Shown here one piece after another: positions 1-9,784 of a stretch of 14,667 nucleotides of DNA; position 1 is the first letter of the stretch, and every line of letters starts with the position of its first letter. This stretch comes from a virus (Monodnaviria > Loebvirae > Hofneiviricota > Faserviricetes > Tubulavirales > Inoviridae). The stretch is taken from the IMG/VR virus record IMGVR_UViG_2609459846_000001. One strand, given 5' to 3'. The position numbers were made by a program, and so were the translations under genes. The notes beneath the pieces are model-generated. The model saw nothing but the letters and a program-made list of their open reading frames with translations, was not told the DNA's origin and searched no databases.

Positions 1-3155
<3,155 letters not shown>

Positions 3156-3185
3156 CTGAATTTTTAACATTGAGGAGTCTGATTT

Positions 3186-3611
3186 ATGAATCAAATTTAC
3201 GACAGTTTTCCGTTTCCTTCCCCTGAAGGTTTTACCGCAGGTATGACAATGGCGGGATATTTTATTCACGCCACTGTCATAAATGATGAGGAGTTAAAAC
3301 CCACGGGTTCTCATTATAACCCTGAGGCCAAACCCAAATATGCCATTGTTATTGCCTATCCGTATGAGGACCGAAAATTAAAAGTCCGCCGTGAGGAGCA
3401 TGAGCGCTTTTCCTGTACTGAGGAGGATTTTAAATTTTTTAATTCATGTCCTGATTTGCAGGGCAAACCTGTTTATCTCACGGTGGATGTTAACTCATGG
3501 TCGACAGGCTCTGAACGTCATGGTGTCTGGTATCGTTTTATTTCCGGCTCCATGAAACGTTTTGACGGTCAGCCGCTGGGTGCACTGCCCGCTGGTAAAG
3601 ATAAGAATTAA
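3186..3611 (+). CDS. Hypothetical protein; putative ssDNA-binding protein by position (gV-like)
   Basis: 141-aa ORF with a GAGGAG ribosome-binding site 8 nt upstream, lying between the rep and coat genes where filamentous phages encode their ssDNA-binding protein. The assignment is positional only. Confidence 0.4.
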   Translation: MNQIYDSFPFPSPEGFTAGMTMAGYFIHATVINDEELKPTGSHYNPEAKPKYAIVIAYPYEDRKLKVRREEHERFSCTEEDFKFFNSCPDLQGKPVYLTVDVNSWSTGSERHGVWYRFISGSMKRFDGQPLGALPAGKDKN

Positions 3612-3616
3612 GTTTC

Positions 3617-3790
3617 ATGTCTGTTAATTCGGATTCGGTTTCCACGCAAATTAATGCTATTTGCGTGGGGATACCTGATGTGTCGGGGGTTGATTCCTCG
3701 GCGTTTTTAACGGGATTTTCACTGCCAGTATTTTGTTTTTTTCTTGGCATGATTATTTCCACAATTTGGAGTTTAATAAGGAGACTTTAA
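3617..3790 (+). CDS. Small hydrophobic protein, putative minor coat protein (g7p/g9p-like); not in the supplied ORF track
   Basis: 57 codons, translated by hand as MSVNSDSVSTQINAICVGIPDVSGVDSSAFLTGFSLPVFCFFLGMIISTIWSLIRRL. The C-terminal half is a predicted transmembrane helix followed by basic residues. It starts 5 nt after the previous stop and ends 2 nt before the major coat gene. An in-frame GTG at 3680 is an alternative start. Confidence 0.4.
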   Translation: MSVNSDSVSTQINAICVGIPDVSGVDSSAFLTGFSLPVFCFFLGMIISTIWSLIRRL

Positions 3791-3792
3791 TT

Positions 3793-4041
3793 ATGTTTGC
3801 AAAAATGACCAATCTTTTTAAGGGTGTTAATAAGAAAGTTGCAGCCTTATCTTTTTCCGCTGCTTCTGCTCTTGCTGTATCTCCGTCTTTTGCTGGTACA
3901 GTCGATTTTTCATCATTGACTAACAGCATTGATATGTCTTCTGTTTCTGCTGTTATTCTTTCTATCGGTGTTGCAGGAGTTACAGTTTATCTGACTTTTG
4001 CTGGCGTTCGTAAAGTATGGGGAGCCCTCAGAAGTATCTGA
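3793..4041 (+). CDS. Major coat protein (g8p-like) precursor
   Basis: 82 aa from the ATG at 3793, with AAGGAG 9 nt upstream. Signal peptide MFAKMTNLFKGVNKKVAALSFSAASALAVSPSFA, then a ~48-aa mature peptide with a hydrophobic core (VSAVILSIGVAGVTVYLTFAGV) and a basic C-terminus (RKVWGALRSI). A strong terminator follows. Confidence 0.7.
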   Translation: MFAKMTNLFKGVNKKVAALSFSAASALAVSPSFAGTVDFSSLTNSIDMSSVSAVILSIGVAGVTVYLTFAGVRKVWGALRSI

Positions 4042-4059
4042 GTTGTTTTTTATGAGGAA

Positions 4060-4083
4060 GGGCGGATATTCCGCCCTTTTTTT
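4060..4083 (+). terminator. Rho-independent terminator after the major coat gene
   Basis: GGGCGGA-tat-TCCGCCC forms a 7-bp GC-rich stem, followed directly by seven T residues (4077-4083). Confidence 0.65.
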
Positions 4084-4175
4084 GGATATTTATGTTTGAT
4101 TTTATTTTTATGATGTTTGGCTCCCTTTGTGGGTTATGTTGCGTCATTGGGTTTAAATCTAATTTGTGAGGTTTT

Positions 4176-4346
4176 GTGTCTACTCAAGAATTTAAAGTTA
4201 AATTGCCGAAATACACTATCGAGCAGATAGAAAGAATTATTTACAATAAAAATACAACCATTGAAGAATATGTTGTTTCAGTTATTCTTGAAAAAGCCGA
4301 TCAGGATTTCCGTCGAATTGTAAAACCATTTAGTTTTTACTGGTGA
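4176..4346 (+). CDS. Small hypothetical protein (56 aa, GTG start); not in the supplied ORF track
   Basis: Hand translation: [60 protein letters not shown] lies 4 nt upstream of the GTG. The stop (4344-4346) is 4 nt before the g3p start, which suggests translational coupling. Hydrophilic and charged. Confidence 0.3.
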
Positions 4347-4350
4347 TGAA

Positions 4351-5928
<1,578 letters not shown>

Positions 5929-5942
5929 TAATCAGGTGGTGA

Positions 5943-6233
<291 letters not shown>

Positions 6234-6244
6234 GAGGGTGATTT

Positions 6245-8559
<2,315 letters not shown>

Positions 8560-9016: not shown

Positions 9017-9784
<768 letters not shown>

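Follow-up and report, generated by a model that had tools for sequence, protein, structure and literature searches.

An unannotated gene preceding the major coat gene of an Escherichia coli filamentous prophage and its likeness to the PA0722 family

The round tip of the Ff filamentous phages is composed of five copies each of pVII and pIX. The positively charged C-termini of both proteins face the DNA and the packaging hairpin, and the negative N-terminal end of pVII lies at the tip (PMC10175506). It was reported in a preprint that gVII and gIX are absent from many integrative filamentous phages (10.1101/2023.12.30.573655). In the Pseudomonas phages Pf1 and Pf4, the gene known as ORF83 or PA0722, respectively, sits between the single-stranded DNA (ssDNA)-binding gene and the major coat gene, and Vpf76 of the Vibrio phage VfO3K6 is found at the same place. 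PA0722 has been labelled as gIX/minor capsid protein (PMC12328805), is thought to be similar to pIX (PMC13502202), and was observed to co-vary with the structural genes and not with the replication genes (PMC7549136). The present work deals with the corresponding interval of an integrated E. coli filamentous prophage (Inoviridae) contained in the IMG/VR record IMGVR_UViG_2609459846_000001, in which the whole stretch of 14,667 nucleotides (nt) that was analyzed is referred to as the window. An earlier note on this DNA had pointed to an unannotated hydrophobic open reading frame (ORF) of 57 amino acids (aa) lying after the gV-like gene and before the major coat gene, which is here named ORF57 (MSVNSDSVSTQINAICVGIPDVSGVDSSAFLTGFSLPVFCFFLGMIISTIWSLIRRL). 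A literature search found no description of this E. coli phage.

Coding status of the interval upstream of the coat gene

ORF57 is very probably a genuine conserved protein-coding gene that genome annotation misses. The ORF listing and the sequence agree with the 57-codon frame and the tight spacings given in the earlier note: the stop of an upstream 141-aa ORF ends at 3611, leaving 5 nt (gtttc) before the ATG of ORF57, and the pre-coat ATG at 3793 is found 2 nt past its TAA (3788-3790). The frame is also unannotated, as had been claimed, with the RefSeq PGAP annotation being blank at 3612-3792 in every E. coli genome inspected and the neighbouring genes being annotated. When the 181-nt interval was submitted to 5000 dinucleotide-preserving shuffles, a complete plus-strand ORF of at least 57 codons was obtained in 0.3% of them, and in 0.04% when an ATG start was considered.

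Copies of ORF57 were drawn from RefSeq genomes, IMG/VR, metagenomes, and assemblies encoding diverged coat proteins. The 14 gapless DNA haplotypes found, presenting 94-100% identity, were all open and all 174 nt long, while the 20 distinct protein variants recovered from ~180 contigs in a 15-billion-protein collection were each exactly 57 aa and differed by conservative replacements. The conservation of the frame, on which the earlier note had let its proposal depend, was confirmed in 14/14 haplotypes and 20/20 variants. That note had also considered that the interval might hold one or two small genes. Since an internal stop was found in no haplotype, ORF57 corresponds to one uninterrupted gene, and the arrangement of two adjacent genes within 3617-3790 was discarded.

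The substitutions among these copies followed the pattern of a coding sequence. Of 23 distinct mutations, nine were non-synonymous and 14 synonymous, the synonymous share expected being 0.29 (P=0.0014); no other of the six frames gave a better result. The ratio of non-synonymous to synonymous substitution rates (dN/dS, Nei-Gojobori) was 0.18 for the whole gene, 0.11 for codons 23-57, and 0.24 for codons 1-22, where most of the amino-acid variation of ORF57 is located. Thus, even with this greater variation, the N-terminal part is also constrained as coding sequence.

A very unlikely alternative would be that the interval comprises a non-coding leader of the coat gene in which an ORF stayed open by chance, or that the real gene is a 74-aa antisense ORF (3538-3762, minus strand), which shares bases with ORF57 and with the final part of the gene upstream. 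This could explain why PGAP annotates nothing in the interval, why the ATG of ORF57 lacks a preceding Shine-Dalgarno (SD) sequence, and why gene callers reported the antisense ORF in two loci (L021 and L030); moreover, a mild synonymous excess was found in the antisense frame (P=0.038). However, the gap was rarely filled in the shuffles mentioned above, and the synonymous excess was strongest in the plus frame, the one that is intact in all gapless haplotypes. In addition, a stop interrupts the antisense ORF in the haplotypes carrying D26Y, only fragments of 23 and 35 aa are held by the loci L004 and L040, respectively, and its C-terminal third falls outside the conserved module, being different in each genetic context. 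It also opposes the sole transcription direction of the phage genes, besides overlapping the end of the upstream one. Due to the D26Y interruption, the context-dependent C-terminal third, and the weaker synonymous excess, the antisense ORF was rejected as a real gene and is most likely an annotation artefact.

Regarding the distribution of ORF57, a word-indexed search and an exhaustive phmmer search recovered relatives only at identities of at least 93%. Two other matches of the protein search were set aside, one as repetitive junk (P0003) and the other as an unrelated 333-aa protein that had been mis-clustered (P0039). Scans of viral contigs and metagenomes revealed the same narrow E. coli lineage only. 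Megablast and tblastn searches of the phage collection, in which the region, ORF57, and the coat protein served as queries, gave no meaningful match, and two scans of genome contigs, with the ORF57 alignment and with Zot, found nothing. The search of PDB sequences with ORF57 resulted in a single irrelevant match with flagellin (E 0.065), and that of Pfam in a sub-threshold transmembrane match only.

Module linkage and translation signals

ORF57 is the first gene of the structural module. In different E. coli strains, the block composed of ORF57 and the coat, g3, g6, Zot, and secretin genes follows replication/ssDNA-binding modules that are unrelated to one another, at least three in number. 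The first included an IS110 or helix-turn-helix (HTH) gene followed by Phage_GPA and the 141-aa gene; the second, Rep_trans and a 111-aa gene; and the third, Ff-like G2P/Phage_DNA_bind genes and a 76-aa ORF. Whichever module precedes it, the similarity begins no more than ~5 nt from the ORF57 ATG, and 3-5 nt separate this ATG from the stop of the upstream ORF. The loci displaying module exchange at 3612-3617 were L004, L030, L040, and L026. The 76-aa ORF of the Ff-like contexts (MSRDFVGLIQSYYSKGV...) is itself conserved between the Phage_DNA_bind gene and ORF57 (2044-2273 in L030 and 2767-2997 in L040); it ends 3 nt before the ORF57 ATG, is left unannotated by RefSeq in L040, and presented no family match.

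The signals found around the start codon suggest that translation of ORF57 is coupled to that of the upstream gene and proceeds by re-initiation. In phage f1, gene VII is translated in this coupled manner, lacking an SD and having a start that adjoins the upstream stop. The duplex predicted between the region preceding the ORF57 start and the anti-SD, at -1.5 kcal/mol, was weaker than that of any other phage gene scored. Most of these genes ranged from -6 to -10 kcal/mol, including the upstream 141-aa gene with its strong SD (-8.8 kcal/mol). The IS110 transposase ORF, which is not a phage gene and is listed with a TTG start, formed no anti-SD duplex. Furthermore, a promoter scan detected no plus-strand promoter-like site in the stretch separating the upstream gene from the coat gene. 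In this mechanism, the ribosomes ending the upstream gene, whose stop is found 3-5 nt before the ATG, would re-initiate on ORF57, and this coupling would hold the ORF57 output low relative to that of the coat gene, which is provided with a strong SD.

Comparison with established and putative cap genes of other inoviruses and proposed role

The earlier note had described a C-terminal transmembrane helix with a basic tail, and this description was supported by hydropathy, charge, and AlphaFold2, which were accompanied by an acidic N-terminus and no signal peptide. The top 19-residue hydropathy window comprised residues 36-54 (Kyte-Doolittle 2.17), with a net charge of -3 in the N-terminal flank and +2 in the C-terminal flank (RRL). 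AlphaFold2, run on the single sequence without an alignment and thus yielding secondary structure only, placed a helix at residues 27-56 with a predicted local distance difference test (pLDDT) score of 79-94. The segment encoded by codons 1-22 is predicted to be periplasmic and, provided that ORF57 forms part of the virion, to be exposed at its tip. Both the hydropathy and the charge asymmetry of ORF57 match those of M13 g7p, the mature coat protein, and the Pf3 coat protein.

In relation to pVII of Ff, ORF57 is likewise positioned after gV, and both share the absence of a signal peptide, an acidic N-terminus, a single hydrophobic helix, which is a prediction in the case of ORF57, and an arginine-rich C-terminal end (PMC10175506). 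The start of ORF57, found 3-5 nt past the upstream stop and without an SD in all three contexts, is another point of likeness. However, ORF57 has 57 aa and pVII 33 aa, and gVII is followed by gIX and then gVIII in Ff, whereas the coat gene comes directly after ORF57 in the E. coli prophage. At the sequence level, the profile of M13, IKe, and If1 g7p, built by hand, was matched by ORF57 with 19% probability over nine columns in hhalign, and the equivalent g9p profile with 1.5% probability. A short core motif is shared with g7p (VFCFFLGMI in ORF57 and VLCFALGII in g7p; shuffle p=0.008), although this similarity alone is not convincing. The g7p/g9p-type assignment of the earlier note held for the gVII/gIX slot, the predicted topology, and the lack of an SD, but not for membership in the g7p or g9p sequence families or for the size, which is 57 and not ~33 aa.

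A closer, though weak, resemblance was found in the Pf phages. The best PHROG match for 20/20 ORF57 variants was phrog_1147 (E 0.002-0.01) and the second was phrog_969 (E 0.013-0.032), these being the matches obtained at E <0.1; two further families were matched by one or two variants each at E 0.15-0.4. By scanning known phages, it was verified that phrog_1147 corresponds to Pf1 ORF83/Pf4 PA0722 (E 7e-46) and phrog_969 to Vpf76 of VfO3K6 (E 1.6e-26). The match to phrog_1147 was confined to positions 47-81 of the 84 in the profile. In hhalign, using a target profile built from two Pf lineages, residues 23-56 of ORF57 aligned with residues 48-81 of PA0722/ORF83 over 34 ungapped columns, with 29% identity and 77% probability. 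The score of this alignment was 29.1, which was reached by 0/300 composition-preserving shuffles of the C-terminal domain (mean 11.7, standard deviation 1.6, maximum 20.6), and nine other small transmembrane proteins scored 7-17.5 against the same profile. The likeness extends to the genetic context: ORF83/PA0722 also directly precedes the major coat gene, and their operon is closed by a terminator located after the coat gene (Pf1 and PfAC09 maps), and ORF83/PA0722 is also co-inherited with the structural and not with the replication module, as reported for PA0722 (PMC7549136) and as seen in the E. coli loci for ORF57. The differences concern the size, 83 aa in ORF83 and 57 aa in ORF57, and an extra 30-aa gene (PfsE) present between the ssDNA-binding gene and ORF83 in Pf and having no counterpart there in the E. 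coli phage. Based on these comparisons, the most fitting description of ORF57 is that of a relative, short and divergent, of the PA0722/ORF83-type gene preceding the coat gene in other inoviruses.

The Vibrio phages display a similar arrangement, in which Vpf76 of VfO3K6 and ORF81 of VGJphi (phrog_2924, "putative minor capsid protein") occupy the position that follows the gV-like gene and precedes the major coat gene, and encode proteins ending in a transmembrane helix and a basic tail. These proteins are 76-81 aa long and present a cysteine-containing N-terminal domain, unlike ORF57. A sister E. coli phage (L003) was also observed to carry the same 141-aa gene followed by an entirely different structural module, in which transmembrane ORFs of 46 and 56 aa separate the 141-aa gene from the coat gene. 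The larger of the two, of 56 aa, resembles ORF57 in its acidic N-terminal half, its one transmembrane helix, and its short tail, but with no significant sequence similarity (BLASTP E 10; Smith-Waterman shuffle p=0.013), and the slot contains two genes, annotated as hypothetical proteins, instead of one. Both were found to be orphans in the protein databases.

Since ORF57 shares with PA0722 the linkage, the position, and the topology, it is proposed to be a genuine gene encoding a PA0722-like putative minor capsid/assembly-initiation protein, produced by coupled translation and acting as a pVII/pIX-like cap, a reading to which we give a probability of roughly 0.6. By analogy with these proteins, ORF57 may be present in the virion and take part in its assembly. 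It would be inserted in the inner membrane without a signal peptide, with the acidic N-terminal ~25 residues in the periplasm and the RRL tail in the cytoplasm, as is the case for the Ff capsid proteins prior to their assembly. A few copies, perhaps together with the ORF25 product described below, would then contact the ssDNA by means of their basic C-termini, at its packaging end and at the site of the Zot/secretin export machine. There, they would nucleate the polymerization of the coat protein and stay as the leading-end cap, as pVII/pIX do in the round tip, with the longer N-terminus of ORF57 projecting from the tip.

Several observations weigh against this proposal. First, the homologues are all at least 93% identical and restricted to Escherichia, and the selection test consequently rests on just 23 mutations; one draft copy from IMG/VR (L011) is frameshifted in a run of seven T (T7), which is there reduced to six. 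Second, ORF57 matched neither the Pfam family PF19978 (Inovirus_G7P_2) nor phrog_7781 at E values up to 10, and did not match phrog_10143, the family of Ff pIX, although M13 g7p and g9p, whose sequences were verified against PDB 8B3P, were readily recovered as controls (g7p by PF19978 at 1.3e-21 and phrog_7781 at 4.6e-20; g9p by phrog_10143 at 3e-26). Third, BLASTP between ORF57 and PA0722/ORF83 found nothing, the hidden Markov model E values were only ~0.002-0.01, and the similarity is limited to the transmembrane helix and the tail, a kind of region in which matches are often driven by composition. ORF57 is also devoid of the ~45-residue two-cysteine N-terminal domain of ORF83 and Vpf76, whose C10 and C23 are conserved in the alignment of two Pf lineages of ORF83; it has only 22 residues before the PA0722-aligned region, and these do not align. 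Fourth, a profile made of two sequences, Vpf76 and VGJ ORF81, did not reproduce the phrog_969 link (0.3% probability in hhalign). Finally, the virion role of PA0722 was itself assigned by position and analogy, with no published structure or proteomics being found, and the neighbouring Pf gene PA0721/PfsE is a superinfection-exclusion factor (PMC8764522), so a purely structural function is not to be assumed for the small hydrophobic genes of this locus.

This last point leads to the main rival reading, considered unlikely, in which ORF57 would be a real inner-membrane protein without a place in the capsid. It would then be a host-directed or accessory product of the structural operon, acting for example in superinfection exclusion, as a PfsE-like blocker of the phage receptor or of the Tol/pilus machinery, or as a non-virion assembly helper. 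PfsE (PA0721), of 30 aa, is encoded between the ssDNA-binding and coat genes of Pf4, binds PilC, and blocks superinfection (PMC8764522). The polar N-terminal ~22 residues of ORF57 evolve faster than the rest, which is compatible with an interaction surface, and its placement in virions is itself inferential. Nevertheless, ORF57 scored 29.1 against the PA0722/ORF83 profile, whereas Pf1 orf30 (PfsE), which belongs to no PHROG family, reached only 17.5. Moreover, strict co-inheritance ties ORF57 to the coat, g3, g6, Zot, and secretin genes whichever replication module is present, while PA0721 goes with the replication side in Pf phages (PMC7549136). In fact, PfsE itself has been listed as gVII/minor capsid protein (PMC12328805); therefore, the exclusion and capsid roles need not exclude each other.

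It is improbable that the locus gives rise to more than one product, which could be generated in two ways. In the first, a nested 36-aa protein would start at the in-frame GTG of codon 22 (3680), in a manner comparable to pX and pXI of Ff. This codon follows a GGGGA at a spacing of 8 nt, with an anti-SD duplex of -5.5 kcal/mol, and is replaced by ATG in L031, P0037, and P0038; the PA0722-like region begins exactly at residue 23, and 36 aa would match the g7p/g9p size. In the second, a -1 slip on U_UUU_UUU at 3736-3742 would lead from residue 42 of ORF57 into the pre-coat frame, fusing the 42 preceding residues to it. The T7 run has the form of an X_XXY_YYZ heptamer, the coat frame is open for ~32 codons upstream of the coat ATG, and ORFs of 141 aa fusing ORF57 to the pre-coat protein were found in Logan assemblies (P0005 and P0006). 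However, the purifying selection on codons 1-22 (dN/dS 0.24) and the maintenance of the ATG at 3617 at the module junction in every context speak for the full-length form. The fusion and truncation variants occurred only in draft or Logan assemblies, and the run was T7 in 5/5 complete genomes checked, so sequencing or assembly error is the simpler explanation of the T-run variants, and phase variation or programmed frameshifting involving T6/T8 was judged unlikely. In addition, no downstream stimulatory structure was found, Rfam detecting nothing in 3000-4500, and a fusion would be cut again by signal peptidase, leaving it without obvious use.

A similarly doubtful extension of the nested-start idea is that ORF57 is a dual-purpose or dual-product tip gene, in which a full-length form, contributing either a fast-evolving acidic peptide of 22 residues exposed at the leading tip or a PfsE-like exclusion or host-modulating factor in the membrane, would coexist with a nested 36-aa pVII/pIX-like cap subunit. 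If this were true, the C-terminal domain of PA0722, Vpf76, and ORF57 would represent an ancestral cap module common to the inoviruses of Pseudomonas, Vibrio, and E. coli, which would help to settle which proteins cap the non-Ff filamentous phages.

A second small gene, the prophage setting, and implications

The second small hydrophobic gene that would be expected by Ff-type logic exists elsewhere, after the coat-gene terminator. This gene, named ORF25, encodes a hydrophobic protein of 25 aa (MFDFIFMMFGSLCGLCCVIGFKSNL). Its seven haplotypes presented 16 synonymous and 10 non-synonymous mutations (P=1.6e-5), including a serine codon switch from TCT to AGT, and it was conserved across a much more divergent segment, with ~78% nt identity. 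ORF25 was absent from the 15-billion-protein collection. In VGJphi, the 29-aa ORF29 ("putative minor capsid protein") comes right after the coat gene, which is the same place as that of ORF25. ORF25 is a candidate partner cap protein of ORF57.

The prophage lies within the window (Table 1), and the element was identified in ~50 of 5426 complete E. coli genomes at differing chromosomal sites. It is led by the IS110-family transposase gene and is found between yahK and yahJ in some strains (L001) and between hcxB and ybiB in others (L002). Since a prophage with an IS110-family transposase gene occupies differing sites, the element may be mobile by IS110-type transposition and not by dif/XerCD or an integrase. 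The 141-aa gene at the gV position matched the Pfam family Putative_G5P weakly (E 0.075) and phrog_30648 strongly (E 6.5e-95). The pre-coat protein, which is a hypothetical coding sequence in RefSeq, matched phrog_2186 (virion structural protein, E 2.4e-14) and phrog_6548 (major coat protein), and Pfam Phage_Coat_B weakly. A terminator after the coat gene is annotated with an identical layout in Pf1 and IKe.

Downstream of ORF25, a 56-aa soluble ORF with a GTG start (4176-4346, plus strand) precedes the g3-like gene and is annotated in only some RefSeq genomes. It presented weak HTH/transcription-regulator-like profile matches (E ~0.02-0.03) and is replaced by a diverged 63-aa ORF (~57% nt identity) in other module variants. 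The g3-like gene contains an 18-nt tandem repeat of 9.2 copies (5392-5557) encoding (GTGSGT)n. The g3-like protein varied from 495 to 634 aa across copies, and its N-terminal half was only ~64% identical between variants; this variation in length and in the N-terminal half suggests that it carries a variable receptor-binding module. At the right end of the prophage, 3' of the secretin gene, a phospholipase-D (PLD)-family gene may represent accessory cargo.

Table 1. Coordinates of the features discussed, as positions in the window.
Feature	Coordinates	Strand	Remarks
IS110-family transposase	133-1149		ORF list and family profile searches
Phage_GPA-type replication endonuclease	1152-3155		ORF list and family profile searches
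141-aa gene, gV (ssDNA-binding) position	3186-3611	+	ORF; proposed upstream coupling partner
Stop-start junction TAA-gtttc-ATG	3609-3619	+	Module boundary; proposed re-initiation site
ORF57, unannotated 57-aa gene	3617-3790	+	Putative PA0722-like minor capsid/assembly-initiation membrane protein
Codons 1-22 of ORF57	3617-3682	+	Polar acidic N-terminal segment; net negative charge; low AlphaFold2 confidence
GGGGA preceding the in-frame GTG	3667-3671	+	
In-frame GTG (V22)	3680-3682	+	Possible nested start, 36-aa product; speculative
Codons 23-57 of ORF57	3683-3787	+	Conserved C-terminal domain with transmembrane helix and RRL tail; resembles Pf1 ORF83/PA0722
T7 homopolymer	3736-3742	+	Inside the transmembrane-coding region; frameshift variants in draft assemblies
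AAGGAG SD of the coat gene	3778-3783	+	Embedded in the last codons of ORF57; duplex -9.3 kcal/mol
Pre-coat (major coat) gene, 82 aa	3793-4041	+	Signal peptide; PHROG/Pfam matches
Rho-independent terminator hairpin	4054-4082	+	3' of the coat gene; fold -18.9 kcal/mol, z -3.7; T run behind it
ORF25, second unannotated small hydrophobic gene, 25 aa	4092-4169	+	Conservation; synonymous excess
g3-like gene	4351-5928		
DUF2523 g6-like gene	5946-6233		
Zot	6245-7303		
Secretin	7300-8559		
PLD-family gene	9086-9784	+	

In the majority of integrative filamentous phages, the proteins initiating assembly and capping the leading end have been assigned, if at all, by gene position only. The E. coli prophage family analyzed here has a conserved and never annotated gene in the cap slot, which is missed by the standard pipelines and for which some callers pick the wrong strand, and this gene provides a measurable though weak sequence link to the PA0722 family of Pf. 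The biology is as expected of an inovirus, and the result consolidates rather than surprises. Taken together, ORF57 and ORF25 comprise two concrete cap candidates in a VGJphi-like layout, whose recognition would improve prophage annotation.

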